Shown: piece after piece, positions 3,385 to 62,057 of the stretch
Layout of the letters: each line of letters starts with the position of its first letter
How positions within the stretch are numbered: position 1 is the stretch's first letter
Notes under the pieces: generated by a model
The model's input: only the letters and a program-made list of their open reading frames with translations
What the model was told of the DNA's origin: nothing
Database searches by the model: none
Made by a program: the position numbers and the translations under genes
NCBI GenBank assembly: GCA_918234285.1
Contig: CAKJXZ020000010.1
Coordinates: 49,196 to 113,195 of the forward strand
DNA from: Pseudomonadota bacterium
Lineage (GTDB): Bacteria > Pseudomonadota > Alphaproteobacteria > RF32 > CAG-239
DNA: 64,000 nucleotides
Direction of reading: 5' to 3'

Positions 3385-3660
3385 TCAAAGTAACTCTTTT
3401 AAGGTTTCTTCGACCGAATCGGCATATTTATGCGGTTGCGGCTTGCTCTTTAGATAATAATAACTCAGCGAAAAAAGACGGATGGCCGGTGTCATACCAA
3501 GGCAGGAATTATGATTATCCTTGATTTTTTCAAATAAAGTTTTCCTTTTGAGTTTTTCACGATAACATATTTCATCAATAATTTTCCACTCGGTATTGGT
3601 CAGTCGCATGCAGGTTTTTTTATCAAAAACGGAAATAACTTTATTTACATGTTTAAGCAT
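3385..3660 (-). CDS. Ribbon-helix-helix domain protein (RHH_4-like)
   Basis: KKTCMRL...EW..IDEIC.RE...T.AIR...L.YY pattern. Confidence 0.7.
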   Translation of the reverse strand: MLKHVNKVISVFDKKTCMRLTNTEWKIIDEICYREKLKRKTLFEKIKDNHNSCLGMTPAIRLFSLSYYYLKSKPQPHKYADSVEETLKELL

Positions 3661-4427: not shown

Positions 4428-5150
4428 ATGCGTACTGGTCTAATCGCAAAAAAATTAGGAATGTCCCGCATTTTTCAGGCCGACGGAACTCATGTTCCTG
4501 TAACGGTTTTGAGTGTTGAAGGTTTGCAGGTAGTTAATGTAAAGACTGCCGAAAAAGACGGATACAACGCCGTACAATTGGGTACCGGCGCCGTAAAAGC
4601 CAAAAATGTAAGCAAACCGCTTAAGGGATATTTCGCTAAGGCTAAAATTGAACCGAAAAAGAAATTGTGGGAATTCAGAGTTTCTGATGACTGCTTATTG
4701 AATGTCGGTTCGGAATTGTCGGTTGAACACTTCGTTCCGGGACAATATGTTGACGTATGCGCCACCTCAAACGGTAAAGGCTTTGCCGGCGTAATGAAGC
4801 GTTACAATTTTGCCGGTTTGGAAGCAAGTCACGGTGTATCTATTTCTCACCGTTCGCACGGTTCTACCGGTCAAAGACAAGATCCGGGTAAAGTTTTCAA
4901 AGGTAAGAAAATGGCCGGACACATGGGTGCTGAACGCGTTACCGTTCAAAATCTCAAGGTTGTTTCGGTTGATTCTGCCAGAGGCTTGATTATGGTTAAA
5001 GGCGGCGTTCCGGGTTGCGAAAACGCATGGGTAAGAATTACCGATGCCGTTAAGAAGCCGGCTACTGTTGCTTTGCCGATGCCTGCCGGATTGAAAAAAG
5101 TTGATGAACCTGTTGTGACAGCTGAAGTTTCGGCTGAGAATGCAGAATAG
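4428..5150 (+). CDS. rplC: 50S ribosomal protein L3
   Basis: [10 protein letters not shown]...[27 protein letters not shown]. Confidence 0.99.
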
Positions 5151-17433: not shown

Positions 17434-18783
17434 TTAACGGTTCTTCTTACTGATTAATGCCGCCTTTTTGAGCAAACCTTCGTATTGGTAGGCAATTAAG
17501 TGCGATTGAACCTGATTTACGAAATCCATGGTAACCTGGACCACGATAAGCAGGGTAGTGCCGCCCAAAACAAACGGAACACCGACTCGGCTGATTAAAA
17601 TTTCCGGCAAAATGCAGAGGCAGACCAAATAAACGGAAGCTACCATCGTCAGACGCGTAATTACGTAGTCGAGATATTCTGCGGTATTTTTACCCGGACG
17701 AATACCTGCGATAAAGCCACCGTGTTTCTTCAGGTTTTCAGCGGTTTCTTCCGGATTAAATACCACGCCGGTGTAGAAAAACGTAAAGAACAGGATTAAG
17801 AAGGCATATAAAGCCAAATACAACGGCTGACCATGACCGAGTAACTGGCTCAAAGTTTGTACCCAACCCGGACCTTGTTCGGCCGAAAGATTGGCTATCG
17901 TAATCGGCAACAACAGCAAAGAGCTGGCAAAAATCGGCGGAATAACACCGGTCGGGTTAATTTTCAGCGGCAAGTGCGAACTGTCGGCTGCAGTTATGCG
18001 CATCCCCATTTGGCGCTTCGGATATTGAATCACGATACGACGTTGTGCGCGCTCAACAAACACGATGACATAGATAAGAGCTAAAGCCATAATCAGCAGC
18101 ATAATGATGGTGCCGAAAGACATTTGACCGGCACGACCTAATTCAAAAGTCTGCGCTAAAGCGTTCGGAATGTTGGCAATAATACCTACCGTAATGATAA
18201 GTGACGAACCGTTGCCGACGCCGCGCTGGGTGATTTGATCACCGAGCCAAACGATAAACATGGTGCCGCCAACCAAAGATACGATGGTCGAAAACTTAAA
18301 TGCAAAGCTAGGAATCAATACAGCGGAAGCACCGTTGGCACCGGAAATGCTCAGCAAACCGACGGCAATACCGTAACCTTGAATAATCGTAATCAAAACC
18401 GTCAGCATCTTGGTGTAGTGTACGATTTTGCGGTGTCCGGCTTCACCTTCTTTTTTGAGAGCTTGCAAAGACGGAATAACCGACTGTCCGAGCTGAATGA
18501 TAATGGATGCGGAAATGTAAGGCATAATGTTGAGGGCAAAAATCGTCATACGCTCCAACGCACCGCCGGAAAACATATTGAACATACCTAAAATACCACC
18601 CGAGTTACGGCTGAACATTTCAGCCAAAACGCCGGCATTAATACCCGGAAGCGGGATAAACGTTCCCAAACGGAACACGATTAATGCCATAACGGTAAAC
18701 CATAATCTTTTCTTAAGTTCTTCAGCCTTACCAAAGGCAGACATATCTAAGCCTGCTGCCATTTTTTCTGCTAACGAAGCCAT
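17434..18783 (-). CDS. secY: Preprotein translocase SecY
   Basis: IFALNIMPYISASII...GVIPPIFASS...GIRPG. ATG 18783 has RBS AAGGA. Confidence 0.99.
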   Translation of the reverse strand: MASLAEKMAAGLDMSAFGKAEELKKRLWFTVMALIVFRLGTFIPLPGINAGVLAEMFSRNSGGILGMFNMFSGGALERMTIFALNIMPYISASIIIQLGQSVIPSLQALKKEGEAGHRKIVHYTKMLTVLITIIQGYGIAVGLLSISGANGASAVLIPSFAFKFSTIVSLVGGTMFIVWLGDQITQRGVGNGSSLIITVGIIANIPNALAQTFELGRAGQMSFGTIIMLLIMALALIYVIVFVERAQRRIVIQYPKRQMGMRITAADSSHLPLKINPTGVIPPIFASSLLLLPITIANLSAEQGPGWVQTLSQLLGHGQPLYLALYAFLILFFTFFYTGVVFNPEETAENLKKHGGFIAGIRPGKNTAEYLDYVITRLTMVASVYLVCLCILPEILISRVGVPFVLGGTTLLIVVQVTMDFVNQVQSHLIAYQYEGLLKKAALISKKNR

Positions 18784-19867: not shown

Positions 19868-22498
19868 TTATGCAACCATTTGTTTTATGGCGGCAATGGC
19901 ATCGCTTATTTTTTCTACATCGGTGCCGCCGGCCTGTGCCATATCGGGACGTCCGCCGCCACCCTGACCGCCGAGAACACCGGCCGCTGCCCGCACCATA
20001 TCAACCGCGTTATATTTGCCGGTCAAGTCTTTGCTGACCCCGACAACTACCGAGGCTTTGCCGTCTTTATCAGAGCACAAAACCACCACACCGGAGCCGA
20101 TTTTTTGCGTAATATCGTCAACAAATGCCTTCAGTTCTTTCGGGTGGGCATCCGGTACCAATTTGCCGACAAATTTAACACCGTTAACGGTTTCTACCTC
20201 GTCTTTAGCCGAAGATTGACCACCGGCCAGACTTCTCTTTAAATTAAAGATTTCAGCTTCAAGTTTTTTGCGTTCTTCAAGCAATCCGGCGATTCTGGCT
20301 TCCAAATCATTTATATTGGTTTTCAAGCCGTTGGCCGCCGCATGCAACTTATCTTCCAAAAAGCGTACATAAGAATCCGCACCGCAACCGGTTACACATT
20401 CCAAACGGCGTACACCGGCTGCCACGGCAGATTCCGATAAAATATGGAAGTAGCCGATATTGCCGGTAGAGCTGACGTGAGTTCCGCCGCAAAGTTCGCG
20501 TGAGAACGGGGCTTTTTCATCGCCCATGGTAACCACGCGCACATCTTCACCGTATTTCTCGTCAAACAAAGCCATGGCACCGAGGGCAACCGCTTCGTCT
20601 TTATTCATAATCACGGTGTTGACTTTCAAATCGTTGCGAATTTGCTCGTTGACGATATCTTCTACCTTGCGGATTTGTTCGGTAGTAATCTGTTTCGGGT
20701 GAGAAATATCAAAACGCATTCTACCGGCTTCAACCGCCGAACCTTTTTGTGCCACGTGGTCACCCAACACGATTTTTAAAGCTTTATGAGCCAAGTGGGT
20801 TACCGAGTGGTTGGCACAAATTTGCGAGCGATTTTCTCTGTTGACCTCAAAGTTGGCAAATTCACCGACTTTTACCGTACCGCTCTGCAATTCACAGACA
20901 TGAGCATATAAATCGTTCAACTTGGGTTTGCAATCGATGACCTTGGCGGTAAAGTTTTTGGATACGATTGTGCCGATATCGCCGACTTGGCCGCCGCGTT
21001 CGGCATAAAACGGAGTTTGGTTGGCTACCAACTCGAATTTACCGGAAGTTATTTCGTTTACTTCTTTGTCATCTTGTACCAAAGCTTTGATTTCGCCATC
21101 GGTTTTTAAGGTGTTGTAGCCCAAAAATTCGGTAGCACCGCATTTATCTTTGATACCGTACCAAACTTTGGCCACACCTTCGTCGCCGGAGCCGGCCCAG
21201 TTTTTACGCGCTTCGGCTTTTTGTTTTTCCATGCAGGCATTGAAGCCTTCGACATCAACTTCGAGATTTCTGCCCTTGAGCGCATCCTGAGTCAAATCAA
21301 GCGGAAAACCGTAAGTATCATAGAGTCTGAACGCGGTTTCGCCGCTGAGTTTGGCACCGGAAGACAGTTTAGAAATTTCATCATCAAGCAGCTTCAAACC
21401 TTTATCTAAGGTGCGACCGAAACGTTCTTCTTCGATTTCGATGGTTTCTTTAATCAGAGTTTCACGAGCATAAAGTTCCGGATAGGCATCGCCCATTTCT
21501 TTCTGCAGTGTCGGCAACAGCTTATAAATCATCGGCTCTTTGACACCGAGCATATAGGCGTGGCGCATGGCACGACGCATAATGCGGCGTAATACATAGC
21601 CGCGACCCTCATTGGACGGCAACACCCCGTCGGCGATTAAAAAGCTGATGGCGCGCAGATGGTCGGCAATTACGTTGTGGGAAGCCTTGAGCGGGCCGTT
21701 CGGGTCGGTATTGGCAATATCGGCAATTGCTTTAATCAGGTGTTGGAACATATCGGTTTCAAAGTTGGAGTGAACACCCTGCAAAATTGCGGCAATGCGT
21801 TCCAAACCCATACCGGTATCGATTGACGGGCGTTTTAAGTTGATGCGCGAGCCGTCCGGTAAATCTTCAAATTGGTCAAATACGAGGTTCCAAATTTCAA
21901 TAAATCGGTCGCCGTCTTCTTCCGGAGTCCCCGGCAGACCGCCCCAAACCTCCGGACCATGGTCATAAAAAATTTCGGAACACGGACCGCACGGGCCGGT
22001 ATCGCCCATTTGCCAGAAGTTATCTTTGGTGGCAATACGGATAATACGGTCTTCCGGCAAGCCGGAAACCTTCTTCCAGATATCGTGTGCTTCGTCGTCG
22101 TTATGATAAATCGTAACCGCCAGCTTTTCTTTCGGCAGGCCGAATTCTTTGGTCAGCAATTCCCATGCGTACGGAATGGCGTAATCTTTGAAATAATCGC
22201 CAAACGAAAAGTTACCGAGCATTTCGAAAAACGTATGGTGGCGTACATCGTAACCCACACTGTCCAAATCGTTGTGTTTGCCGCCGGCGCGCACGCTTTT
22301 TTGTGCGGTGGCCGCTCGGGTATAATCGCGGGTTTCGTTGCCGGCCAGAATGTTTTTAAACTGTACCATGCCGGAATTGGTAAACATCAAAGTCGGATCG
22401 TTATCCGGCACCAAAGATGATGACGGAACTATTTTGTGGCCGTTTTTCTCGAAATAATCGAGGAACGTTTTGCGAATTTCATTTACACCGATTGTCAT
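19868..22498 (-). CDS. alaS: Alanine--tRNA ligase
   Basis: [47 protein letters not shown]. Confidence 0.99.
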
Positions 22499-54400: not shown

Positions 54401-55047
54401 GTAATATTTTTACCGTAAAGTTCGACATTATCTTTGGCCATAATTTTGCCGTTAACGGTAATATTGCCTTCTGAGCTTGACAAGAGTTCGTCATATTTTT
54501 CGGCACCGTGTATATAATCGCTCAAATCATCATCATTAAAAGCTTCTTTTAAGTCGTTATACTTGTCGCTGTTCGGAGCAGCCATCGTCAGTGCGCCGAC
54601 ATTCAATACACCGCTCGCCCCGACCACAATGCCGGAAGGCGAAACAAAAATCGCGTGTCCGCCATAAAATGCATCTCCTTTGACGGTGTTGACAATGCCG
54701 TTGATATTTACCTGGTTGTCAACCATATTGACGAACTTGTCGTATTCTTGTGTGCCTTTTTGAAATTGCAGATTTGCCACATCACCGTCATCAAGCGTAA
54801 AATCCGTGTACTGTCTGAAACCCGTATCTCCGGAAATTTTAGCCGCCTCAATGTTATAAACCCCGTTGGCGCCGGCAACACCGGTAATGTTTGTGGCAAA
54901 CACCGGAGTAATATTCAAAAACATCATGCTGTAAGCGGTTATAAACGATACAACCTTGCGAAACAACGACGGTTTTTTAAACTCTATTTCTTGAGATTTT
55001 TTAATTCGAAATTTCTTTTTGTTTCCGGTAGCTCTCGACATAGACAC
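36457..55047 (-). CDS. Giant LktA/filamentous-haemagglutinin-like exoprotein with a C-terminal PilZ-like domain
   Basis: Long signal peptide ending PVFA; TPS-like domain (VNMVDNQVNINGIVN...IFVSPSGIVVGASGVLNVG); extended beta-helix repeats; C-terminal IIEISRYDA...LKCVVTK...TVKF. Start GTG 55047 or ATG 55041. Confidence 0.85.
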   Translation of the reverse strand: MSMSRATGNKKKFRIKKSQEIEFKKPSLFRKVVSFITAYSMMFLNITPVFATNITGVAGANGVYNIEAAKISGDTGFRQYTDFTLDDGDVANLQFQKGTQEYDKFVNMVDNQVNINGIVNTVKGDAFYGGHAIFVSPSGIVVGASGVLNVGALTMAAPNSDKYNDLKEAFNDDDLSDYIHGAEKYDELLSSSEGNITVNGKIMAKDNVELYGKNITIEGKNGNRAGIVAGVKNQNKITTPQQAQEIFDALVSNNIKNADTFDLEGGKIKIKASGNKTVDSVKSAKADIKKADLGANEVNIRAEAESDDKIDMVKTEINIENTDITADKIDIKAESKRNHTVVLGNNDYIDGVNSTAIELLTNLIGGSDSHFPFGATGASEAKVTVKDSVLQSLKQDIILKADASFSTKDNLNLMYPALLMMLIDLFGDDASDPEVERADASFTQFFSGNIYEGFDGPRTRAEVTVDNTDITALKGNIEISAEASSELNLSTGIEGLIIPVAIYGFGTSTVARAIVKNLSKLNIEEGDVNVDAFSNNTNNIRLLNSGITSLTIEDFFVLTIINNTVKTTTEAKVEDSTVTTSDLEVRAVNTTDSDIDIDIETTAGEADQDPEQNPDNPVQGNSAVSGIGILHRSHNDISAVIKNSTVTSENTSVLAQSLNATSNSGSADVDDREVEKPAPFWNNSITQWERQVQGKLKAAQRKYINKSLFNRIKGGGNFVGQQGATLEAGGVFVWSKTDNNATAKIEDSTITTAKDVSVQANTIDIMDNAATSDTAGEEKVSLSITAVINDEKNTTNAQVDGSTVKAKNLTVNATTELPVNDGELIFGLKFPFKIKGVDGLYFGGTFGHGADGKWDVDFKYPKIDGDKPLFEMGELTNKTAYANYEDIKPKLRWDGFFTNFAQTNGIGSKVAIDGSFIYNEVVNNTTANITGNSAIVLNAVEKNGEYEGGNLIVNAVNSVIGWNALGMIDFLIKQVNYRIPGQINWEYEPQDEAGTFGLGVNFLWDIYTNNAIAKIENSTVDTQNGSVSVNAATEQEYVTAEVTGGKSEFIGIDGSANVQKIYGDTIAQIVGSENIKAAEVEVNAGKGTIRTAADGAETDEETGTAKLNDERAVKDAMTIINFLPTWSGQSAEQDQGQQTVSAGVAVGSGVNVSNIERNINAEINNSTVITAKDIDIKADTYSQTLNVIAAAAWSGGVTPAQPGGQGGGQQGGDDNQPAVQNDIGNVQQNLDNAQDDEDGDLFGNLFDGEEEFMQAPVGNALTALRNKFSLSVAGAVLILNDKTNVTAAVNNSDITVGEDLNVSADRETRMITISGGISKSGKIGAGAAVNVYMSDGSVKADVKDSTITFNSPANAQENPQLNVKANNTNKIINIAIGVGLAPNADVSDESLKMAIGGSYSKNTLKPEIEAFIENSTIKTKENGKKIDTEVKAENHVVIYNIAGGGAYLNGGSTSLGAGAAVNYNNIEHTILAYIHNSTLKNLNKLSVVADTDNDLTGFAVAGSLAFGFNTTGIAFDGSGDVDYIHDTLAAKILGSTIEADDDVIVNAASKSDNLAVAGSLDISLTSGGGGVNGGLVVNVYRNKITAQIDDSFKMVQNENGEMEAVLDRSSQILKAKDVMVSATSTEKSNVIPIGLAVGTGGQFLMAAANVGVNVIDNTIEAYISGKVGAGQGAEAVHDAVASAYDETTLYSRGGTVGVSLGESALAVFAGSVNVDKINKTVEAKIVNADIKATGGVSATASAVNSLGGTKNENNEYSRDDVTSEEYREKLLHKNETTGEYDGLKLKKKEDSDDDDNQYIALEQDSDFKNWNMFYDVAVSRYLAISGTGIGKVISNKITAEISNSKIESDKLDIIADDYSIKNIIAGTIGASGAGSVGLQVIYTRDESTTKALVTKGSELNVANAIKIDASNRKDNHQILVVGSGAKYFTVDGNFIINKVIDEVYANIDNASTTKEIKAETISLSADENISASNIAVTGSGSKSFSLNVSPFINTYGSTTEATIKNALIKNAGIDMDAESKINTLNVSAGFSGAYQGFSGVGIAIKNDFTNKVRAYIDNAKINTTRNVFIDANSIIDATNWLVGVALVYQGLDIPVNVLLNNVTSEVEAGIKNSDIEKSGAITINANKDKKDKITNRAIAAGGVFQGATLGANVIKNVYKNTVTSYVDNTSSAIIDALSVNAYSDRKTENINVGVGFAGEGASLLANAVDNEIGSTTRAYVDVKSKTLNITNALSLDTKDQMVADNAMAMVNAGLYGAGVGANIDLYYTDNLVKSEIATETTGQINAGSTLLKSEITDALRTQPFDLTFGLGALPVDVQIVKIGKQTVTYSAVEQPFVDKAGKLVPDILYTPITDSGNLVTGAVSGVKGNLKTSGNTQINAETKLKGIDGDGNLIDKLKINNTNVTVAGVEVNVGVRRLDIAANTVAEIIGGKVESTQGDIELKAESKSDVEIDSSAVDVGLAQVSGRSVKYNNSSETVSRVKNATVNAKDIDIISKSDNKTLIDASSVIVALGGVVTVDLVEATDTNKSVALITGNTNINATGKLSLHSTATSDMSAIKSSVPVQIVDVVSVSRNRADVSSISRAIIENVNGTISTNGLDIITDYDKMLAYSQSNIVAVKPIDIASYNDSGAYMNATFKSGIDSTELTLINSGDTNIVTARDNQSDGDGMVAKGNISNVHVSLANFYTGAFSKAENTATSSTILNVKEHTSQNLNIDQYLHSTATADAGNDRITLVGFASAAAADAKDTSTLNLNISGTNTVLQNAVINATHNSKIKSDLSAFNLGVIVSGGRIRIDSELTSDTNANIGGKFNVGSASVNINTHRDSTMSKGSGSGGFINVSDTEAHNTLRGDSILNLKNLTSDAAKTDSWDISNKSENIFDVETTDGSGGFINVSLSDLFLNFETSTDIKVENSNINAKGKVKIGVDNKEILRESAWNNGGGFISVINNYTLNEYTAGAQLLIKDSQIKAKDIDLKASSDMRTHDNDFIKYSGAGGGAVAVSYFTLINKLTQTSEIKLQNSVLNAARNAEIQAVTSSLFKQKIDGDLRGLVSAPRFENTLEVTNTNKLELDNKSKITAGEKLDISFNSNNDLAVRTFSDARNFEGVPSALSYLYLTINNVVENSGSLQAGNLVDIDYMNKSVNNLDQYAHTENDAFIASTTEGGILSRKVNNTLNVNSGADITSGQDIDIGYSVGIMKPTSEVSWVTKSLWFITDSGSSTVDKPSNNYSLKNDGEIVAGQGNSRYMRINRDGTVDMSTLKGFYDGDYILYDGQLIDGQEAKDNNLAAITADIRSIDEALTELNGTISDLEATINYFDAQKTPLLTKLSEINELQADGYILTEAKTDADGNSDFNTIIQNDLYDLLIDETDANKVTQEQYNQFINAYGSKLEEINAYNYGYTEKLEIPTIAEFIDANDYGLSDAQKANIALNYGTADALLVGENENQISLEQYNQITVAYKEKINDINIHNYGHSEKKETPTFWEFLEGYDFTEAQITTIKDGYSTINSRLQSTTVGKFTTYENSSGKYVSVTDLDVTGDEPTFKELTQIKSELSLLNNQIGAYTARKNSNVAAQTALNTKKNSLQAEYDNLLATDALKYERVDNLYLIVFNDIDYKNARINIDGAYNGNISGHGEFRVASGGVKIDNYSPRSVIFGEINVDSATGNGLFIGGKNHAEFADKEQAVSGKDAYEYINNISGHKAFNELPTDGAHYVSGDDGTVGVTVNNYYDVLHPFADTFDIPNPTMEANVFFVDDINTSILNVWSESGNILVLSDNLDIGTLNAYSTNGLIGIVMGSGSEFALNSGSNMFASDGVFINADSVNIAGNIKTGYTERSITITDEMLNNLITDPTSGEVNMINLGGTVSPYLNDVNNIKAIYKDGAIYLYNLPETVTNNGVRISKIISENSTGTITGNITTADGYQNITIVNETDKPLNVENITNAYFEGVVETNGIDTESATITKNSKNHAETNITSAGKLILDGIIRNNVRRSLVDDSYLVQTANGKLNVEANNGLDIAQILQIGNIVDTIFAGGLIDITINGGKADIAGNITDKGNIAIYSYGDDDIDINGDITDTIGNINIQNDGTGKLTLNGKILARKGDISVLGTGTGVTVITDEITDNQGDITIVSKGLTASEDATVRAKNGDISITNNADTLALYGSINADSGNLSLQNNGDTAIIAGYITDEQGDLTIINNKGNMTISAEIYHNYVNSEAEGMITVVNNPGGELLNIQSAIQTWGKGKTEDDKTTAILLDNRSGNTGMTIDKAVTARIGDIIIRNTAKDLTISGAISNTEQGNIEIYNTGKDLQTTSNITNTKGDTTIANTGTGKTLVDGSILNKDGNTAISGSGTMLELSGTVNNTGGNTSLTNTAGQLQITGNITNKGGDITANNTGSLTEITSVIKNEDGSIHLSNSGGDFNIDDNAQISNNTANAEDSITIANSGDNLNISGIVESTNKGNIVITNAGSVANLKNRIFAQEGDINISNSNAGALKLMGDVVDYKGNVSITNTGTNGAEIGGIITDEKGDITITNNGGDILTYTGSIINYDGAVVINNKENAKQAQIGGTITNKKGNTTLSNAGLNMTFSGSIDNQDGSVNILGTNSGNNAFVKVGGNVSNQGGDVVINNLGSYTEVSAEITNKNGAIAISNAKGNLVITENAAIENDTANAAQGITLGNADTANILRMNGAIDSLNKGNISIVNNGSGNTIITGDITAHNGNIGITNNTAGNLNIEDATVVTETAGNINIYGSGGKLSVIDAWLETDTEGDITITNEGSDATSVSGDVITDKGDILISNKAEKLEISADISANQGDIDIENHGADLEIAEDASIATETEGGISVINEGNGNLSIDGDITAETVGDILINNSGKKLSVSSDITAKEGKIDIINEGTDAALIEGDITATTGDITVVNNTKTLDISGDISTAKGDVDITNNSTDSGTTISGDVSTDNGEVSIENNGGKLTVSGDITDTEGNIEIANHGADGSDISQKVSAEEGNITVNNTAGTLSLTATGDITADKGNIAVENAGDKLAVFGQISNNNGKVDITNNGDNGAEFASSAKVTNNQANTVITNNKGDLIIADGAEIKNIESGNIRIENKDDVFSVAGKIAHSGTGDIGLNNSGAESFELTSTGEVAADKGNISIINTAAKGAKIAGTIIDKDGNTAIDNKNSLTYAATLKNSGGDTIIANTGDAAMSGSVSNTGGNTSIANSGGALSLASTVNNVGGNLSITNSGNGTTVSGDLDNTGGDVVIENIGKDLVLTADSTVDNNDTGNISITNSGDGKLALNGAINNNVSGNTIITNTGANGAEIAGKITNTQGNLTVQNQKSDLVFTQGSALQNRTSGDIKIENTAEAATLTVAGVLDNSGNGNIVTENRGAGEFTITPSGNIYAANGDINLTNINNGGMQIAGQVVANNGKTTVDNTSKDGMKVATTGQIIGKTGDIAINNSGANGIKIEGKVLAQKQNIIINNRDSDLIIGELDSANDNYVEATAGDIVIKQANGDILNGIIDTSGNKHQNADLGNPQQSYKTLISAAGDLVMKVSDGDIGHTDNTSPGFSIDASTRDWTDSVNINVGGDVMAIAANDNKSDARLINLRAKDSDMNVKNVMADGNVLLTAADWKQADVSPTPDDEEYFKGYSVINTADGDEAAVSGRNISVIASNNIGSKDKNFKYMQDTAADPDSSVSFEAEYDLKITGTANSDSETKIYQIISKHGTLDLNLESDAAIGYITSGDGLEITQKAQNLTIGEIGLSSSEYIPQDDFEDILYPHDGLIYGDDSPSGGNVVPKYVMISVLDAIDTAERSDSNLKIYSLTVRGNNGDNADYYPDGGRLADVTLMADNIYVNSDKAPDSNVSTKANPDGYKQTQTSYNDEIFGGKGEIHNAKGINAYGEGTPLSLDIIGVDKDIVENIVTNPQRNEYKEQTSLKDIPSKFKNVEDSIYDYDFRVKNAVISVNDYVDSERGVEFDTLYADNAYVNTMDTNLTIHDGYVNNYAELRNGNRDADSSRYLVVIDNDYRRLVPSNVQLYTTKTGSFGLSINDKVRMHTPSPVTHYDWDKLVNTFDDENSFVRLGMKETEIRQQAKQYYQYGNIYVMPENIEARYEVQKEGALAANVEIIEISRYDAVIVNQYSWQLGEEHELELRFDDVNAKLKCVVTKIENNLATVKFKDMPAGIANRLAHRYMKTAGK

Positions 55048-55283
55048 AATCCCTGGCAGCGTTAAATTATATCTGTTTTTACTTCATCTCAAAATTCGTT
55101 TATTATTGAGGTTTAATAAATTATCATTAATTCTATATTATTTCTGACAGTTTTTCAAGAAATTTTAGTGTTTTTCGCATTTTTTTAATTGGTAAACAGC
55201 GGCAAAAATAAAAAATTCTCAAAATTTTTCTTATGGTTAAAGTTGAAATGTAAATTTCTAATTTTAGCTAAAGGAGAAAGAAT

Positions 55284-55964
55284 ATGACAGAATTTACAAG
55301 AGAACTTATGTATGGCAAGCGTCCGATACGCCGTACTAATCCCAAACCCGGACAAAGCGAATGGTATTATCTTGACCCGCGCGGAACAGATAGATTTGCT
55401 GATATGAAGGAAATCGATGTACCGAGCGAAAATTCGCCAAATCCGTACGCCAATGAAATACAAAACTATCTGTATAACAATGACGAGTATAATTATAAAC
55501 AACTTTATGGTAATACTCCACCGCCACCGGTGCAAACACAGAATAATGCTCAGCAACTACAAATGCCTGCAGGAACGCAACAACAAATAACCATGCCGAG
55601 TAATAATTTACAAAAATACAATAACAATTTTGCAAATTTTGTAAGCAATACTTATGATAACGTAAATAATGCTTATAATAGTGTTAAGCAAGATTACTTT
55701 GGACAACGTAATTATCAGAATAGGTATAAACAAGGTTGTACGCCTTCTAATATTGCATATAATACAATATCCAATTATCAGATTTCGCCTAATCCTAAGT
55801 TAGTAGAAAACGGTAATATAGTTTCAAATTACGGTATGAAGAAATTTTTATCAAAAATTCCAATTGCCGGAAAATATATTAATGGTATTGCAACTGGTGA
55901 AAAAATAGGAAATGGACTTACTAATTTTTACAACGCTTTGGATGAGGCAGATTGTTTCAAATAA
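55284..55964 (+). CDS. Hypothetical protein, candidate polymorphic toxin
   Basis: RBS AAGGAG; short N-terminal leader, Q/N-rich linker, amphipathic Gly-rich C-terminus (KKFLSKIPIAGKYINGIATGEKIGNGL). Confidence 0.6.
   Translation: MTEFTRELMYGKRPIRRTNPKPGQSEWYYLDPRGTDRFADMKEIDVPSENSPNPYANEIQNYLYNNDEYNYKQLYGNTPPPPVQTQNNAQQLQMPAGTQQQITMPSNNLQKYNNNFANFVSNTYDNVNNAYNSVKQDYFGQRNYQNRYKQGCTPSNIAYNTISNYQISPNPKLVENGNIVSNYGMKKFLSKIPIAGKYINGIATGEKIGNGLTNFYNALDEADCFK
55348..55368 (+). repeat. 21-bp direct repeat, copy A (codes GQSEWY)
   Basis: CCGGACAAAGCGAATGGTATT; 20/21 identical to 56460-56480. Confidence 0.85.
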
Positions 55965-56020
55965 ATCTTGATTTTCACCAACAATCAACATATAGTAAAT
56001 CTAAATAAAGAGGATAACAA

Positions 56021-56419
56021 ATGAATGAAAAAACAAAAAAAATATGCGTATTAGGCGGACTTTATTTTGTGATAGGCTATATCATTGATTTGGTTAGCGG
56101 CACTGCAAGCAATCTATCAATGATTTTTGATATTATTTTTGCTATCCTCTTTTTTATGGTTTTATTTGGCAAGAAAGTTGGCTTTTTGCAAGAATTCACG
56201 AATAAGTTTCCTAAGTTCTCAGTATATTTATATTGTATCGGACTTATAGGATATGTTTTATTTGTTTTTAATTTGTTGGTTTTAGGACCGACTGAATTTA
56301 TTTCTTTGAGTGAGAATGCTCAAATATATATTTCGACAGGTGTGGCCGCTATAAACATTGTCGGAATTTTGTTGGCATTGATTTTAGCAACTCGTAAAGT
56401 ATTTTTATTAAAAAAGTAA
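56021..56419 (+). CDS. Four-TM membrane protein, candidate immunity protein
   Basis: 132 aa, four hydrophobic segments, own promoter TTGATT(55968)-17-TATAGT, RBS GAGGA. Confidence 0.65.
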   Translation: MNEKTKKICVLGGLYFVIGYIIDLVSGTASNLSMIFDIIFAILFFMVLFGKKVGFLQEFTNKFPKFSVYLYCIGLIGYVLFVFNLLVLGPTEFISLSENAQIYISTGVAAINIVGILLALILATRKVFLLKK

Positions 56420-56459
56420 TTCAGCCAACCGAATACATTTATTTAAATTTACTTATAAT

Positions 56460-56480
56460 CCGGACAAAGCGAGTGGTATT
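56460..56480 (+). repeat. 21-bp direct repeat, copy B (intergenic)
   Basis: CCGGACAAAGCGAGTGGTATT; the one mismatch is synonymous (GAA/GAG) in the GQSEWY frame. Confidence 0.85.
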
Positions 56481-56524
56481 TGTTTTCAAAATGGCGCTTA
56501 AAACAATATCATTCACTTATTTTT

Positions 56525-56929
56525 TTATCTTTCGTAACTTCCGATAAAGTTTCCTTGCATGCCGCAATATATACGCGATAAAGAGTTTGCTTCTACATCT
56601 ATAGCGTTTTTATCAGCATCGAACGTGAAGGTTACAACAACATCCTCATATTTACCTTCAGGTGTTTCAATTCTGTTTTTATATTCACCCTTATTAGCTT
56701 TTATTTCCAATTTCCCTTCCAGACTGCAAAGATGAGCCCCATTTGCGGTTGAGATACTGAAATCACACTGATTATCTATACAATTATTTATCTCCAAGGC
56801 TCCGGATATACCTGTCGCATACCTTTGATATTCCCATACTCCGTTCCAATCCGAACTAATCTGCTCACTTGATAAAGCCGGCATACTAAATACGCTGAAT
56901 AGTCCTAATATAAAAGCAATTTTTTTCAT
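56525..56929 (-). CDS. Small secreted beta-rich protein with four Cys
   Basis: Signal peptide MKKIAFILGLFSVFSMPALS, RBS GAGGAG; WNGVW...NGAHLCSLEG...YCGMQGNFIGSY. Confidence 0.75.
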   Translation of the reverse strand: MKKIAFILGLFSVFSMPALSSEQISSDWNGVWEYQRYATGISGALEINNCIDNQCDFSISTANGAHLCSLEGKLEIKANKGEYKNRIETPEGKYEDVVVTFTFDADKNAIDVEANSLSRIYCGMQGNFIGSYER

Positions 56930-57157
56930 TTTACGCTCTCCTCTAAGATAACAATTATGATAAAATATATAATACAAAAATCAAGTTAAATGGATATTAG
57001 TACAGTATCTTTTCTATCGCCGACATAGGTCACAACAATTTCAGTATTTTCCTAAAATCCTTTAATACAATCTTTTCCATTTTAGAAAATTCCGAAAATT
57101 CGGGAAAACCTAAAATGAGAGAATATGATAAAGTGCTAACCGCAAAAGAACGTTAGA

Positions 57158-58681
57158 TTAGTACTTAATCATAATCTTTTCACATACACCCGGGTTGGTT
57201 TGCCCTCGCGGGTGGTCCTTAAAACAAATACCATCTTTCCACTTGCCACCGCATTGTTGACAGGCATCATAATCTAAAACACGGATATCCTTCGGGCATT
57301 TGTAACAATTTTCTTCGGATAAATAGCGTTTTCCTTTACAAATACCTCCACATTTCCATTCATTATATTGCAGATTTATGTTTTCATAAGAGTCGCAACT
57401 CCAACAATGCCCGACCGTATCCATAAGCGGTGTATCTTGCGGACACTTTAAAACACTCGGAGGTTCTCCTCCGACAGTATTTATTATTTCTCGGTTACTG
57501 CAAACGGCGTTACACTCTTTTTGTTTTTCAAAATTACAAGATGAATCAACACGAATCTCTCCTTTGGTATCGCATGAATAACACAAATTATTCCAAGATT
57601 TCAGCGGCTTATCCGGTGGACATATTTTGTTATCATCTTCATAAGGTTCGTGTTCATATCTTTCCCATGCGGGTTTCAATGGTTTTTGTCCTTTTAATAA
57701 ACAATTTCCATCTTGATCAAGGTAACGATTTGGGCAAACTTCGCAATTTTGAATGTCGGCGTCTAAAACATATTCCCATTCCGTATCGCAAGAATAACAA
57801 CTTCCTTTTTTATCGCGTAAAGGTGCGTTTTGCGGACATTCCTTTAAGGCACAATTTGCTATGCTCGGGTGGCTTCCGAGATGTTCAAGATTATAAGAGC
57901 GGTTAGGACAATATTCTTCGCAAATCCGCCAAGAGCCGACTTCAAAACTCAACAAATCATCACAAGTATAGCAATAAGTTGAAGATTTGAATGCGCACAT
58001 TTTTTGCTGTGATTTCGGCAAATCTTTTGCATTGTAGCATTTTTCCTGATACCATATCCCTTGACAGTTTGCGCATTCACTTTGCGATAAATACTCTTTA
58101 TTTTCGGGACACTTGTAGCTCCAATATATTTCTAAATATCGCTTATTGAGACAGAATTCGGCGTTAGTTTCTTGGTTAAAACTTAAATCAATCGGTGTTT
58201 CTTCATCACAACTCCAGCACATAAAAAATCTATCCATCAGCGGTCGGTCTTCCGGACATTTTAAAACGCTGTATTCGGCAGTTACACTCGTATGATGAAT
58301 CTTGCGATTTGGGCATTGTTTTAGATGTTCTTCTTTCGAATAATCCCACGAAAGGTTTACAGCTTCTGTTGTATCGCAAGAGTAGCATTTATCAAAAGCG
58401 CCCGAAAAAAATCCTTCTTTATCGCATTCTTTGCCATCTGTAGCGGTGTCTTTATAAATGGAAACGGCGGTATTTTCATCTAAATCGCAAGAAGAATATT
58501 TTCCTTTACGTTCGGAAATGCGGTTTGGACAATGTTTCAGGCAATTATCCGGCGTTCCGACTCTTAATGAATAGGGTGTTTCACAATCAAAACATTCGCC
58601 TTTAACATTAAATACGCAATCTTTAGCTTGAACAGCTTTTACCATAAATACCGTAAAGAATATCAATAAAAACTTTTTCAT
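57158..58681 (-). CDS. Secreted cysteine-rich repeat protein
   Basis: Signal peptide MKKFLLIFFTVFMVKAVQA; about seven C[YWF]xC[DE]...CPNR-type units; last 17 residues come from the GNAT-end repeat and adjacent sequence. Confidence 0.85.
   Translation of the reverse strand: MKKFLLIFFTVFMVKAVQAKDCVFNVKGECFDCETPYSLRVGTPDNCLKHCPNRISERKGKYSSCDLDENTAVSIYKDTATDGKECDKEGFFSGAFDKCYSCDTTEAVNLSWDYSKEEHLKQCPNRKIHHTSVTAEYSVLKCPEDRPLMDRFFMCWSCDEETPIDLSFNQETNAEFCLNKRYLEIYWSYKCPENKEYLSQSECANCQGIWYQEKCYNAKDLPKSQQKMCAFKSSTYCYTCDDLLSFEVGSWRICEEYCPNRSYNLEHLGSHPSIANCALKECPQNAPLRDKKGSCYSCDTEWEYVLDADIQNCEVCPNRYLDQDGNCLLKGQKPLKPAWERYEHEPYEDDNKICPPDKPLKSWNNLCYSCDTKGEIRVDSSCNFEKQKECNAVCSNREIINTVGGEPPSVLKCPQDTPLMDTVGHCWSCDSYENINLQYNEWKCGGICKGKRYLSEENCYKCPKDIRVLDYDACQQCGGKWKDGICFKDHPRGQTNPGVCEKIMIKY
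57169..57213 (-). pseudogene. Displaced 3' end of a GNAT gene (TREGKPTRVYVKRL*)
   Basis: ACC CGC GAG GGC AAA CCA ACC CGG GTG TAT GTG AAA AGA TTA TGA matches both GNAT C-termini; overlaps the Cys-rich CDS in another frame. Confidence 0.85.
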
Positions 58682-58784
58682 GATTTTTCCGTTATCGTTT
58701 AAACACACTTTTAGGCTACATTTTATCAAAATACTTGTCAATTATAAATTGTATAGTTGCCGGACTATATTCTACATAATTTTA

Positions 58785-59237
58785 TCAACTTATATTTCTC
58801 ACATACACCCGGGTTGGTTTGTCTTCGCGGGTAGGCATCGTCTGCCAAAAAGTAAAGCCGTATTTCTCGTAGAGGCCGACTTCGTCGGTGGAAATGTAAA
58901 CTTTTTCGGTGCCGGCAGATTTCAAGACCTCGCAAATGTGGGCGATTAGTTTTCCGGCGTTGCGGTGGCCGCGATAAGCCGGAAAGGTATATACAAACCC
59001 AATCCACGGCGTGAGTTCCGGGGCATCAATTTCGTCTTGCGGTGCCAAAGTGGCGAACGAAACCAGCTTATCGCCGTCAGTTAGCATATAAACTTCGGTG
59101 GCTTCTCCGCACATTTGCTTTAATTTGCTTTCTTCCAACCAGTCGTGCAACAATTCCGCCGCCGACCAATCGCCTTTGCCGATTTCCTCGCGCCAATGCG
59201 CCTGATTTTCCGATTGATAATACTTGATAACCTGCAT
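58785..59237 (-). CDS. GNAT acetyltransferase (copy 2)
   Basis: About 90% aa identity to 34803..35252 (15 differences by manual count). Confidence 0.92.
   Translation of the reverse strand: MQVIKYYQSENQAHWREEIGKGDWSAAELLHDWLEESKLKQMCGEATEVYMLTDGDKLVSFATLAPQDEIDAPELTPWIGFVYTFPAYRGHRNAGKLIAHICEVLKSAGTEKVYISTDEVGLYEKYGFTFWQTMPTREDKPTRVYVRNIS
58799..58832. repeat. GNAT 3'-end repeat inside GNAT copy 2
   Basis: TCACATACACCCGGGTTGGTTTGTCTTCGCGGGT; 32/34 identical to 57180-57213. Confidence 0.9.
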
Positions 59238-59247
59238 TTTGCCTCAT

Positions 59248-59340
59248 ACTTCATAGTTGCGATATTTGCAAACTATAAACCTTTAAATATCACTTGCCAA
59301 GTACATACTTCATAGTTTGGTAATTTTAAAACTATGAAGT
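59248..59340. promoter_or_regulatory. Two 34-bp 12-10-12 inverted-repeat sites
   Basis: 59307-59340 ACTTCATAGTTT-N10-AAACTATGAAGT (perfect); 59248-59281 ACTTCATAGTTG-N10-AAACTATAAACC (degenerate). Confidence 0.65.
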
Positions 59341-59402
59341 TATAGGATATAAAGAATATCCGGCGACCGGACTTAAATAATGTAGTTATTCGGTAATTTT
59401 TC

Positions 59403-59431
59403 TTGACTTTTCGGGAATTATTCGGTAATAT
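59403..59431 (+). promoter_or_regulatory. Promoter of the fic-polymerase operon overlaid by TTCGG(T/G)AA direct repeats
   Basis: TTGACT-17-TAATAT; four TTCGGKAA copies between about 59389 and 59439. Confidence 0.6.
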
Positions 59432-59462
59432 TTCGGTAAAGATTATAGCAAAGGATATTAAA

Positions 59463-60521
59463 ATGCCGAATATGACAGATATTACAATTACGCCGGATAT
59501 GCTTAAGAAAATAGCAGAAATCGACACGTTTAACGGGGCGTTTAATAGTGGCGGTATAAAAATTAAGCCTGATCAATTAAAAGCCATGAAGCGCATTGCA
59601 ACGATTGAATCTATCGGCTCGTCAAATCGTATTGAGGGCAATAAATTAAATGATACAGAGGTTGAAACTGTCTTTAATCATATCAGCAAAAAGTCTTTTC
59701 AAACACGCGATGAGCAAGAAGTCGCCGGCTATGCCGATTTGCTCTCAACGATTTTTGAGAATTATAAAGAGATTAACTTATCCGAGAACTATATCAGGCA
59801 GTTGCATAAAATCTTGCTTTCGTATTCAGACAAAGACGAGCGTCATCGCGGCGAATATAAAAAAGATTCAAATCGCGTGGCAGCCTTTGATGCCAATGGT
59901 AATGAAATCGGCACAATTTTTGAAACGGCAACGCCTTTTGATACGCCGCGCTTAATTCAAGAATTGGTAGACTGGACGAACATTAATTTTAAGGACGGCT
60001 ATTTTCACCCGATTATCACAATCGGCGTGTTTGTCGTGCATTTTTTATCAATACACCCGTTTACTGACGGCAACGGCAGGCTTTCACGCGCTTTAACGAC
60101 AATGCTTATGCTGCAAAACGGCTATAATTATATGCCTTACGCTTCAATGGAATCTATCATTGAAGCAAGCAAAGACGCGTATTACAGAGCTTTACGCGGC
60201 ACGCAAAAGACGATATGGACCGATAAGGTTAATTATGAGCCGTGGCTGACGTTCTTTATTACCTCGCTTGCTAAGCAAAAGCGCCATTTAGAAGATAAAA
60301 TTGCTTTAGCTTTGAAAGCGGACACAACGAGAATAAGCAAAGCCGAGCAAGCCGTTTTAGACCTCTTTGAAGAAAAAACAAATTGGTCTGTTTCAGAAAT
60401 GGCAGAAGCTTTAGGCAAAAACAGCGAGACCGTCAAAAAGACCGTGCAAAATCTCGTCAAGAAAGACTTGCTCGAGAAACAAGGCTCAACCAAAGGCACA
60501 TATTATATTTTGAAGAGGTAA
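59463..60521 (+). CDS. Fic-domain protein (class II) with C-terminal winged HTH
   Basis: HPFTDGNGRLSR active site; N-terminal inhibitory motif SSNRIEGN; C-terminal HTH. ATG 59463 with RBS AAGGA. Confidence 0.93.
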   Translation: MPNMTDITITPDMLKKIAEIDTFNGAFNSGGIKIKPDQLKAMKRIATIESIGSSNRIEGNKLNDTEVETVFNHISKKSFQTRDEQEVAGYADLLSTIFENYKEINLSENYIRQLHKILLSYSDKDERHRGEYKKDSNRVAAFDANGNEIGTIFETATPFDTPRLIQELVDWTNINFKDGYFHPIITIGVFVVHFLSIHPFTDGNGRLSRALTTMLMLQNGYNYMPYASMESIIEASKDAYYRALRGTQKTIWTDKVNYEPWLTFFITSLAKQKRHLEDKIALALKADTTRISKAEQAVLDLFEEKTNWSVSEMAEALGKNSETVKKTVQNLVKKDLLEKQGSTKGTYYILKR

Positions 60522-60522
60522 A

Positions 60523-61680
60523 ATGCGCCAGCACGTTATTGCATTGGTTGATTGCGACTGCTTTTTCGTTTCTTGCGAACGGAAGGATAATCCCGATTTG
60601 CAAGGCAAGCCGGTGTGCGTGATGACCGGCGGTGGAAGTAAAGGCATTATCGTGTCGCGCTCTAAAGAAGCTAAGGCGCTGGGGATTAAAATGGGCCAGC
60701 CGTATTTTCAGGTTAAACCGAATTTCCCGACTGCGATTTGTATTCCGGCACGCCACCACCGCTATACCGAGATTTCCAAACAAGTTATGGACACCATCAA
60801 AACTTTCAGTCCGGATGTCGAAGTGACCTCGGTTGATGAAGCGTTTATTGATTTGACCAGCCTCAACAAGGTTTATCACTCGACTTATACCGACATCATA
60901 AAAAATATCCGGCAGACCGTATGGGATAAGGTCGGCATTCCCGTTTCCATCGGCTTGGGAACTTCCAAAACGCTGGCAAAATTGGCGAGCGATAAGGCAA
61001 AAAGTAATAACGGGATATTCGTTATTCCGCCAGATAAAATCTTGGATATCGTGGGCGACATGCCGATTGAGGACGTCAGCGGTATCGGGCGCAAAAACAG
61101 CGAGCACATGAAGTTCAGCGGGATTTTTACGATTAAGGACTTTGTGGCAAAAGAAAACGGCTGGATTAGAAAGGCCTTCGGCATAAACGGATTAAATCTC
61201 AAAAGTGAGCTGACCGGTATTGCGACATCTTTGGTGAATAACGAGCCCACCGCACCGCAGAGCATACAGGTTACCCGCAGTTTTGAGGACTTCACGCAAA
61301 GTTTGGAATATTTGGAACACGAACTAAATCGACATGTTCACGAGGCGTGTCAGAAGTTACGGCGGTGGAATGGCTTTTGCCAAGGGGTAGAAGTCATGCT
61401 CCGCACGAAGGACTTCAAATATCTCGCTACCGAGGCAAAATTTCCCAATCCGACCAACGGTGACCGAGAAGTGCGTGCGACCGCCATAAACCTTTTAAAA
61501 CAACTCTACCGCCCGAATTTAATTTATCGCTCAACCGGCGTAACGCTCAAAAATCTGACCTACGGCGAAGTACAACAGTCGCTGTTTGAGGAAGTTAAAC
61601 CTCACGACGACAAACTCTCCCATCTCGTTGACGAACTGGAAGCCAAATTCGGCAAAGGGATTGTTAAGACAGGAGTGTAG
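60523..61680 (+). CDS. Y-family DNA polymerase (UmuC/DinB-like)
   Basis: LVDCDCFFVSCE, SRSKEAKALGIKMG, SVDEAFID, KTLAKLAS; clamp-binding QQSLF. Confidence 0.93.
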   Translation: MRQHVIALVDCDCFFVSCERKDNPDLQGKPVCVMTGGGSKGIIVSRSKEAKALGIKMGQPYFQVKPNFPTAICIPARHHRYTEISKQVMDTIKTFSPDVEVTSVDEAFIDLTSLNKVYHSTYTDIIKNIRQTVWDKVGIPVSIGLGTSKTLAKLASDKAKSNNGIFVIPPDKILDIVGDMPIEDVSGIGRKNSEHMKFSGIFTIKDFVAKENGWIRKAFGINGLNLKSELTGIATSLVNNEPTAPQSIQVTRSFEDFTQSLEYLEHELNRHVHEACQKLRRWNGFCQGVEVMLRTKDFKYLATEAKFPNPTNGDREVRATAINLLKQLYRPNLIYRSTGVTLKNLTYGEVQQSLFEEVKPHDDKLSHLVDELEAKFGKGIVKTGV

Positions 61681-61695
61681 TAATTTTACTATAAT

Positions 61696-61848
61696 TTATT
61701 TAGAAACATATACATCTGATGAACTGGCTTCAGCTTTGCAATATTCTAACAGTGCTGGAGACATATTGTCCGGATGTGTAAATTCGCATCTGAGGCTATT
61801 ACAACCTGTCAGTAAAATAACAACAATAAACAATAAGCTTTTTTTCAT
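61696..61848 (-). CDS. Small lipoprotein, 50 aa
   Basis: Manual translation MKKSLLFIVVILLTG|CNSLRCEFTHPDNMSPALLEYCKAEASSSDVYVSK*; lipobox LTGC, RBS AGGA. Confidence 0.7.
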   Translation of the reverse strand: MKKSLLFIVVILLTGCNSLRCEFTHPDNMSPALLEYCKAEASSSDVYVSK

Positions 61849-62057
61849 AATTTTATCCTGATAAAACCAAATTATAGCTGTACTAAATCAAAAATAATTT
61901 AGAATCATTTTTATGTATTTTTTCCACATAAAAACGACATTTTTTAAGTTTTTCCCGCATATATAAATTAAAGTATGTATTTTCTATTGACTAACGAAAA
62001 TAATCTGCATATTGTACACCAAAATATGTAAATAGTTGATAATATTACGGGGACAAG

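Follow-up and report, generated by a model that had tools for sequence, protein, structure and literature searches.

Why do pieces of intact coding sequence recur as detached copies at the far ends of adjoining gene modules, and does such an arrangement betray a system dedicated to the movement of genes? The question is raised by a 64-kb window of a rumen Alphaproteobacteria chromosome (the window being the whole stretch of DNA analysed, with its first nucleotide as position 1), in which a region of interest at ~55284-59340 holds two modules, each bounded by its own pair of short direct repeats. The larger module carries a gene for a Cys-rich protein and lies behind GNAT-1, an acetyltransferase gene, and the smaller 1.1-kb module consists of exactly the C-terminus of ORF226, an open reading frame (ORF) for a polymorphic-toxin-like protein, and the gene ORF132. 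In a preliminary description, the region had been interpreted as a hotspot where small circles are integrated or exchanged by means of coding anchors, with nested deletion remnants of an older tandem array as the fallback. We favour, with a probability of roughly 60%, the reading that the repeats are scars which insertions, anchored by homology at one end and joined illegitimately at the far one, left in a hotspot free of mobile elements. The locus is a natural example, in a little-known bacterial group, of a process which is itself known.

Both repeats are real and stand above chance. In a repeat search of the window, the longer pair (57177-57213 and 58796-58832) extended over 37 nucleotides (nt) and the shorter pair (55345-55368 and 56457-56480) over 24 nt, each with 92% identity; an earlier 34-nt call (57180/58799) falls within the former, and the corresponding 21-nt call (55348/56460) has one mismatch. 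In the chance control, 200 dinucleotide shuffles of positions 55001-59400, there was no direct repeat of 21, 24, or 34 nt when up to one, two, or three mismatches, respectively, were allowed, and the whole window holds five such repeat diagonals, namely both pairs, a tRNA-Val tandem, and matches between GNAT paralogues. In either pair, one copy lies inside an intact gene (GNAT-1 and ORF226, respectively; coordinates and strands of all features are listed in Table 1) and the other is an orphan. The two modules with their own repeats, the location of one copy of each in an intact gene, and the restored state of the host gene GNAT-1 are thus as first described, and so is the nature of the cargo as exported or toxin-like, given a Cys-rich protein with a signal-peptide-like N-terminus and an ORF226 of the polymorphic-toxin kind. 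Other details required amendment: the far copies are orphans, but that of the longer repeat is not intergenic, being included, in another frame, in the Cys-rich ORF; both copies of the longer repeat are present, but a third one, at 34811-34847 in a second GNAT gene, had been missed; and the 34-nt orphan exists, but measures 51 nt (57169-57219) when set against other GNAT alleles.

The evidence that carries our interpretation comes from the longer repeat. GNAT-1, for which 1121 homologues were found, ends in ...EDKPTRVYVRNIS, and the family consensus is ...EGKPTRVYVKxL. The orphan, read in the GNAT frame, gives TREGKPTRVYVKRL followed by the stop codon, which is the consensus ending of 22 GNAT homologues, and the former Met134 codon is now AGG. 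It is contiguous with its native flank (flank C), just as in the related loci L004 and L014, and these matches indicate that the orphan and the sequence downstream of it represent the ancestral end of the GNAT gene.

The relatives compared were 80 loci (labelled L001 etc.) obtained from species-representative genomes by scanning with an alignment of GNAT. Fifteen of them encode GNAT proteins of 88-96% amino acid (aa) identity, all in metagenome-assembled genomes (MAGs) of rumen or gut Alphaproteobacteria, with two MAGs supplying two GNAT copies each. In L004 and L014, the GNAT gene is directly succeeded by the sequence found behind the window's orphan (57176 to ~57008; 96% and 90% identity, respectively), so that the two loci are empty alleles with a single repeat copy. 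The GNAT gene of L014 (L014:1961-2408) has a premature stop after codon 118, with the DNA aligning to the end, and is either a pseudogene or affected by an assembly error. In L012, a block of ~9.6 kb is located between the GNAT stop codon and a 33-nt GNAT-end orphan, after which flank C follows. In L003, a 2.2-kb block with genes for ferritin-like, MarR, and metallo-beta-lactamase/rubredoxin proteins is followed by the flank from ~57126, and no clear GNAT orphan was seen in the alignment; an orphan with the left boundary found in the window had been suspected there and was dropped, MAFFT having set that stretch against the flank. Flank C thus comes after the cargo in L012 and, partly, in L003. 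Altogether, other cargo was found at the GNAT slot in L012, L003, L006, L007, L010, and L011, and 11 loci with downstream sequence, out of 12 linked to the Y-family polymerase gene, show seven different contexts downstream of GNAT, the window being an eighth. From these comparisons, the region is a hotspot with empty and alternative alleles.

The joints in these alleles are not constant. Counted from the stop codon of the resident GNAT gene, the position of the far joint is -48 nt (window), -33 nt (L012), ~-12 to -18 nt (L002 and L006), or ~+45 nt (L003). The island of L012 recurs in L002 and L006 beside another GNAT allele and another flank, and in L011 it is inverted, has no orphan, and is separated from GNAT by a further gene. 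A search of the 80 loci besides the window with the 23-nt core of the longer repeat retrieved a single orphan, that of L012; a second copy of the locus's own 36-nt GNAT end was present in none of 79 loci, and no free-standing copy of the longer repeat was found away from GNAT ends. According to the preliminary description, a cassette system should be recognisable from empty alleles and alleles with different cargo among relatives, as are now found for the longer pair, and should not show breakpoints that differ between strains; breakpoints do differ, with orphans of 51 nt (window), 33 nt (L012), and ~12-18 nt (L002 and L006), and none in L003.

The joint has also left its mark on the cargo. 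The native end of the Cys-rich gene lies at ~57221, and its last 20 codons are a read-through into the orphan in a frame other than that of GNAT. All three homologues with 68-73% identity end at ...CF, while in the 90%-identity cluster 13 of 13 C-termini run into the orphan (14 of the 35 members were read, one of them an N-terminal fragment); as distant homologues end at ...CF and close ones run on, the gene has lost its own stop codon at the joint. The tails within the close cluster end variously in KD, KDYQ, NAHP, ...NPSVY, or the 20 residues of the window, where stop codons and contig ends are indistinguishable, a pattern indicative of one ancestral junction and of neutral decay thereafter, as would befit an unselected tail. 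The gene has a promoter-like site at 58748-58720 and a G+C content of 0.33-0.40 versus 0.52 for GNAT. Its product belongs to no Pfam, NCBIfam, or PHROG family, and a search of a protein atlas gave no usable match. In tblastn searches, the gene was absent from all 80 loci, the sole match being the orphan-derived tail in L014.

Enzymes or sites that would mark a mobile element were searched for at several levels. A Pfam scan of 45 of the 51 non-overlapping window ORFs of at least 90 aa, with a 6196-aa ORF left out, revealed no integrase, transposase, or reverse-transcriptase family, in line with what had been stated for the window from inspection; the six ORFs outside the scan, five overlapping ones on the opposite strand and 61586-61861, are likely spurious. 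Neither were integrase or transposase families detected in 86 ORFs, from the cargo and neighbouring genes, of 12 related loci. The DNA fold of the longer-repeat copies is ordinary compared with shuffled sequences (z -0.56 and -1.06) and contains no hairpin, the repeat search listed no inverted repeats at either pair, and the longer repeat has no dyad beyond an 8-nt palindrome at its centre. Rfam, applied with gathering thresholds to the window, L001, L002, and L012, yielded two tRNAs only, the same two as ARAGORN; since the only tRNAs found lie far from the repeat region, a tRNA-type attachment site is not involved. These tRNAs are tandem tRNA-Val genes (anticodons CAC and GAC) at 1541-1709 of the window and form a 79-nt repeat in the self-comparison. 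The hotspot is free of mobile elements of its own.

The sequence of events that we envisage takes place between a conserved polymerase/Fic/GNAT block and a giant exoprotein gene, at a site of gene turnover in rumen Alphaproteobacteria. GNAT, which is conserved, multi-copy, and bordered by variable genes on both sides, would have been the homology anchor, a role suggested by these features; the window has two copies, as does each of two MAGs. Incoming DNA with a GNAT allele followed by the Cys-rich gene would have paired with the resident GNAT by homology on one side, and its far end would have been attached by an illegitimate joint 48 nt ahead of the stop codon of the resident gene. This may have occurred by homology-facilitated illegitimate recombination (HFIR) or, equally, by a single crossover of a circular molecule and deletion of most of the second GNAT. 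Either route would yield an intact GNAT with a donor-type ending, a stopless cargo gene, and the last 16 resident codons on their native flank. An import is suggested because the functional GNAT has a deviant ending while the orphan is of consensus type and adjoins the native flank. On the anchored side homology is continuous, GNAT-1 and the upstream sequence being collinear with relatives at 91-92%, and on the far side the joint is non-homologous and varies in position (-48, -33, ~-15, and ~+45 nt). Illegitimate recombination is also evident close by, since ORF150 is a truncated gene of 134 aa (equivalent, at 99% identity, to the N-terminal 133 aa of a secreted-protein ORF of 360 aa in L004) which lost 648 bp relative to L004 between two copies of the 8-nt word TTACGAAA, and since a 45-nt remnant of a cupin-domain gene stands nearby. 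ORF150 has no Pfam, NCBIfam, or PHROG family.

Both GNAT paralogues of the window are in direct orientation, and GNAT-2 is 88.7% identical to GNAT-1 at the nt level, in the coding sequence only (34809-35252 matching 58794-59237). Segment identities of 79-97% between the copies are compatible with a mosaic produced by recombination among them, which was not relied on. Upstream of GNAT-2 are a CAT-like gene (35269-35892; Pfam CAT) and a MIF/tautomerase-like gene (36016-36360), which sit elsewhere in L001, L002, L003, L005, and L010, so that the GNAT-2 side is mosaic too.

The shorter repeat most likely represents the same kind of scar at a toxin locus. ORF226 had 107 relatives in a search of 1.84 billion representatives; in 30 of them aligned with it, an N-terminal region of ~85 residues is conserved and the C-termini differ, and its own C-terminal domain is also found behind unrelated N-termini. 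Because the N-terminus is conserved and the C-termini are swapped among relatives, the protein is classified here as polymorphic-toxin-like. The domains recognised by Pfam in 28 relatives were Tlde1 (1), SAA-like (3), GH108 (4), VgrG3-like C (2), phage lysozyme (1), and Phage_Mu_F (8), with no family in 12. ORF226 itself matched no Pfam, NCBIfam, or PHROG family and hence has no Phage_Mu_F domain. Its first ~60 residues are a conserved leader without a Pfam family, which precedes Phage_Mu_F in other proteins (P0218-P0242) and may constitute a separate module for trafficking or packaging. The start of ORF226 resembles that of the Fic gene over 20 nt (90%; 55280-55299 versus 59468-59487), possibly by chance. 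ORF132, a protein with 42 homologues and no Pfam, NCBIfam, or PHROG family, adjoins ORF226 in the window, L004, and L006, and from this position it is presumed to be the cognate immunity protein; the predicted complex of ORF226 residues 120-226 with ORF132 scored 0.19 (mark 0.32), which gives no verdict and was not used either way.

Copy 1 of the shorter repeat coincides with the most conserved N-terminal motif of the family, in which G23, Y28, and Y29 are invariant and S25 and W27 nearly so. Copy 2 is kept in L004, where both 24-nt copies are present (4671-4694 and 3556-3579), and absent from L006, where the module is followed by a different sequence after ORF132. Within the favoured reading, the N-terminal coding motif would have anchored the arrival of the present toxin C-terminus together with its immunity gene.

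Several observations weigh against the interpretation of the repeats as scars. For the shorter pair, no allele that is empty or differently filled between its two copies occurs in the two module-bearing relatives (L004 and L006), contrary to what the preliminary description had led one to expect; the similarity is limited to eight codons, and nothing toxin-like follows copy 2. In the minimum-energy fold, the right half of copy 2 provides the 5' arm of a hairpin with a T-run behind it. When the window is compared with L004, one site of the 24-nt copies is C/C versus T/T and another A/G versus G/A; co-varying sites are not predicted by a dead scar and could reflect gene conversion, exchange between the copies, or a shared constraint. 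For the longer pair, three independent joints cluster in the terminal 48 nt of GNAT, more closely than would be expected of endpoints placed purely at random, and the window and L012 share one architecture (gene end, cargo, orphan, same flank) with unrelated cargo, as a site-directed process would also yield. The donor arrangement, with the Cys-rich gene directly behind GNAT, was found in none of the 80 loci, and as the species are uncultured, competence or another form of DNA uptake would have to be assumed.

For the 24-nt pair, a tentative alternative is that it has nothing to do with recombination, copy 2 being shaped by a terminator-like hairpin and its likeness to the toxin motif being fortuitous or regulatory; in the regulatory variant, copy 1, being on the same mRNA, could offer the 3' arm of the hairpin a second pairing partner. 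Besides the position of the right half of copy 2 before the T-run, the variant bases of copy 2 in L004 fit the 3' arm better (by eye), and the confinement of the similarity to eight codons and the lack of an allele bounded by the pair in L004 and L006 are in keeping with this view. Yet the hairpin has an ordinary energy (z -0.66) and was not listed by a terminator consensus scan, no shuffle of 200 produced such a pair, and the other repeat diagonals of the window are true homologies. Furthermore, copy 1 lies on the family's most conserved motif, just where recombination between alleles would be expected to end.

It is unlikely that the whole pattern has a purely local history, in which an internal duplication created a GNAT-cargo-GNAT tandem and nested deletions eroded the second GNAT without any import. 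The doubling of GNAT in the window (in direct orientation) and in two MAGs, orphan lengths that vary like deletion endpoints, and the microhomology deletion 600 nt away would all be accommodated. The fallback of the preliminary description, in which deletions leave remnants, comes close to the reading that the evidence favours. Against a history without import, the Cys-rich gene is present in none of the 80 loci and is AT-richer than the conserved genes, the functional GNAT carries the deviant ending while the orphan is of the local consensus type on its native flank, and the same island stands before two different resident flanks.

A true cassette system is improbable. Here the GNAT 3' end and the toxin N-terminal motif would be attachment sites at which small circles are recurrently inserted and excised with restoration of the host gene, either by a recombinase encoded elsewhere or by RecA acting on ~25-50 nt of homology. 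The empty and other-cargo alleles at the GNAT end, the unrelated cargos of the window and L012 set alike between gene end and orphan before the same flank, and the identity of the central 22 nt of the longer pair, with the 8-nt palindrome, would suit such a system; no recombinase is local, so the enzyme would act in trans. The concerted and swapped sites in the 24-nt copies of the window and L004 could reflect exchange, and toxin stubs break at codons 25-30 in four of eight short variants read, one of the four being a frameshift. Metagenomic N-terminal stubs were considered as possible empty alleles of the 1.1-kb module: P0228 is explained by a frameshift, and the tails of P0229, P0237, and P0260 matched neither the window nor the loci. 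Against a cassette, one and the same island has a 33-nt orphan in L012, abuts ~12-18 nt of another GNAT allele in L002 and L006, and is inverted and separated from GNAT in L011; the cargo gene has been deprived of its stop codon and bears a tail in decay; neither a hairpin nor a dyad of more than 8 nt is seen in the repeat; an additional 36-nt GNAT end occurs in 0 of 79 loci, one orphan with the 23-nt core in 80, and no free-standing site away from GNAT ends; and the 24-nt pair has no empty allele. What remains of the original proposal is thus a hotspot with empty and filled alleles and a restored host gene, while a dedicated small-circle cassette system is not supported, given the variable breakpoints, the destroyed stop codon, the lack of recombination-site structure, and an orphan in 1 of 80 loci. 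Similarly improbable is a variant in which these bacteria would exchange single genes and small islands as circles devoid of a recombinase, captured and released via coding anchors of 25-50 nt (the last GNAT codons and the toxin motif), the orphans would be live attachment sites, and the base changes between the 24-nt copies would be traces of repeated excision and re-insertion.

Table 1 Features of the window discussed in the text, by position
Feature	Position	Strand	Remarks
GNAT-2	34803..35252	-	Second complete paralogue; third longer-repeat copy at 34811-34847
ORF226	55284..55964	+	Polymorphic-toxin-like; ~85-aa conserved N-terminal region, variable C-terminal domain
Shorter repeat, copy 1	55345..55368	+	ORF226 codons 21-28 (KPGQSEWY), most conserved N-terminal motif
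ORF132	56021..56419	+	Small protein, four hydrophobic segments; putative immunity partner of ORF226
Shorter repeat, copy 2 (orphan)	56457..56480	+	In 105-nt spacer between convergent ORF132 and ORF150
ORF150	56525..56929	-	Truncated gene, signal-peptide-like N-terminus; deletion joint 56530-56537
Flank C	56978..57168	-	Ancestral downstream flank of GNAT; directly after GNAT in L004 (96%) and L014 (90%)
3'-end remnant of another gene	57007..57051	-	Matches last codons of cupin-domain ORF, L001 17786-18196 (intact there)
Cys-rich protein gene	57158..58681	-	507 aa, larger-module cargo; signal-peptide-like N-terminus
Orphan GNAT 3' end	57169..57219	-	51 nt, 16 codons + stop; distal longer-repeat copy 57177-57213 inside
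GNAT-1	58785..59237	-	Acetyltransferase, 150 aa; Pfam Acetyltransf_1/7/9/10
Longer repeat, proximal copy	58796..58832	-	Codons T136-R147 of GNAT-1
Two palindromic units	59248..59340	.	~32 nt each; bracket GNAT promoter-like site 59300-59272
Fic/DOC protein and Y-family polymerase genes	59463..61680	+	C-terminal winged-helix in Fic/DOC protein; Pfam Fic, IMS, IMS_C

The Fic/polymerase block is the conserved side of the hotspot, being collinear at 91-92% nt identity in L003, L006, L008, L009, and L013. Both the inverted-repeat sites, put at 34 bp in the preliminary description and corresponding to the two palindromic units, and the Fic and Y-family polymerase pair adjoin the region, as had been pointed out before. 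The proximal palindromic unit is conserved in 15 of 15 aligned loci; homology to the window ends in the middle of the distal one in L001, L004, L007, and L015, and L005 departs there too. The slot between these palindromes and the polymerase gene (window 59343-60509) is occupied by Fic, with 96-98% aa identity in seven related loci, and in its place a 374-aa double-GNAT gene is present in L004 (533-1657) and a YkuD gene in L014 (939-1751); a gene like that of L004 also stands beside GNAT in L001 (8775-9899). Just upstream of Fic (window 59439/59446), a 773-bp insertion with sharp edges, which amounts to the presence or absence of a single gene, occurs in L011 (2917-3690) and L012 (9137-9910), and the L012 copy, which was scanned with Pfam, contains a gene for a 241-aa T5orf172/MUG113/DUF4357 protein. 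On the other side of the hotspot, the 6196-aa ORF (36457-55047) is divergent to ORF226, has by eye a two-partner-secretion-like N-terminus, and is 72-78% identical (nt) to L001 in its 3' part.

Two elements seen in the relatives deserve mention in their own right. A block of ~9.5 kb was found in four MAGs, in three contexts and in both orientations (L012:10477-20004, L002, and L006 in the same and L011:5228-14279 in inverted orientation). It encodes a regulator of the WYL/WCX type, a helicase resembling DnaB_C, an exonuclease resembling RNase T, and ankyrin proteins, plus GmrSD in L002, L006, and L011, and an inverted 17-nt motif (15 of 17 alike) is present at both ends. A recombinase was not recognised in the block, a PHROG search of the unassigned L012 ORFs giving a DnaB-like helicase only; the block may be a mobile defence island. 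A G+C-rich conserved stretch of ~100 nt follows GNAT in four loci (L001:10450-10570, L008, L009, and L013) and the island in L002 (~19870-19990) and L006 (~18470-18600); it matched no Rfam family in L001 and L002.

The locus offers a natural example of a chromosome that gains accessory genes without a mobile element, with empty, filled, and differently filled alleles all available. The genes concerned encode secreted proteins, a toxin-immunity pair, and defence islands. The leftover gene end suggests one-sidedness for at least some of the events, homology having served at one end and an illegitimate joint at the other, and as such scars can be searched for systematically, the frequency of this route in uncultured gut and rumen bacteria could be gauged. 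A cassette system, if it existed, would be a new way of moving genes, which is unlikely on the present evidence.

Among known systems, genomic islands that integrate at the 3' end of a gene and restore it form a general pattern with obvious parallels, since direct repeats of the target 3' end, an intact gene, and single-copy empty sites (L004 and L014) are also seen here. In contrast to such islands, no integrase or recombinase was recognised in the window module or in the 86 ORFs of 12 loci, the boundaries of one island are inconstant (33 nt in L012, ~12-18 nt in L002 and L006, none in L011), and the cargo can be as small as one gene, which has been left without its stop codon. Integron cassettes and Xer-dependent elements (dif modules) likewise comprise single-gene modules without their own recombinase, bounded by short sites. 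The attC site of a cassette consists of imperfect inverted repeats which fold into a hairpin at the cassette end, and the dif site is a 28-nt sequence with two inverted 11-nt arms around a 6-nt spacer. In the repeats described here, however, there is no attC-like hairpin, the 8-nt central palindrome has no inverted arms, IntI is absent from the 45 of 51 window ORFs scanned, and both repeats are no more than segments of the genes next to them.

In polymorphic-toxin loci, a conserved 5' fragment left downstream is a known signature of displacement, and the ORF226 family, with its conserved N-terminal region and variable C-terminal domains, resembles such toxins. A link to the MuF polymorphic toxins of temperate phages, as far as the available part of their description goes (PMC5576092), is given by the 8 of 28 ORF226 relatives that share the first ~60 residues and continue into Phage_Mu_F and toxin-like C-termini, but ORF226 is without a MuF domain and lies beside a giant exoprotein gene, not in a recognisable prophage. 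For the effector-immunity modules of the type VI secretion system of Vibrio cholerae, sequential displacement has been described, and C-terminal displacement with orphan modules in Rhs and contact-dependent inhibition (CDI) systems is cited in the same context, within the portion of the source at hand (PMC5361080). A conserved 5' anchor, the joint arrival of a toxin end and an immunity gene, and old pieces left downstream as orphans are the features in common; in that partial account, they fit the module of ORF226 and ORF132 and, analogously, the orphan of GNAT. Different from V. cholerae as portrayed there, the orphan of the toxin module is a mere 24 nt with no old C-terminus or immunity gene after it, and GNAT is an ordinary enzyme gene.

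Hotspots without mobile elements, which turn over by recombination at their flanks, are common according to the accessible sections of a further study (PMC5635113). Alternative gene sets between conserved flanks, the lack of a recognised integrase or transposase, fast turnover, and defence and secreted-protein genes among the cargo are shared with the hotspots outlined in those sections (PMC5635113), whereas the scarless double crossovers that their model predicts differ from the present case, where two alleles keep a duplicated gene end. Because of this retained duplication, at least some of the events appear to have been one-sided. The primary work on HFIR is reportedly that of de Vries and Wackernagel in 2002, Prudhomme in 2002, and Meier and Wackernagel in 2003. 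In the excerpted discussion of Vibrio effector-immunity displacement, an HFIR model with one-sided homology and an illegitimate far joint is proposed (PMC5361080), and in E. coli conjugation experiments, to judge from the part of the report available, the commonest outcome was single crossovers that duplicate part of the homologous segment (PMC3240628). Unlike these laboratory events with known donors, the case presented here concerns uncultured bacteria and a presumed donor, but within what the two partial sources convey it shares with them continuous homology (here GNAT) on one side, a non-homologous joint near the anchor, a short duplication of the anchor, and independence of any enzyme of a mobile element.

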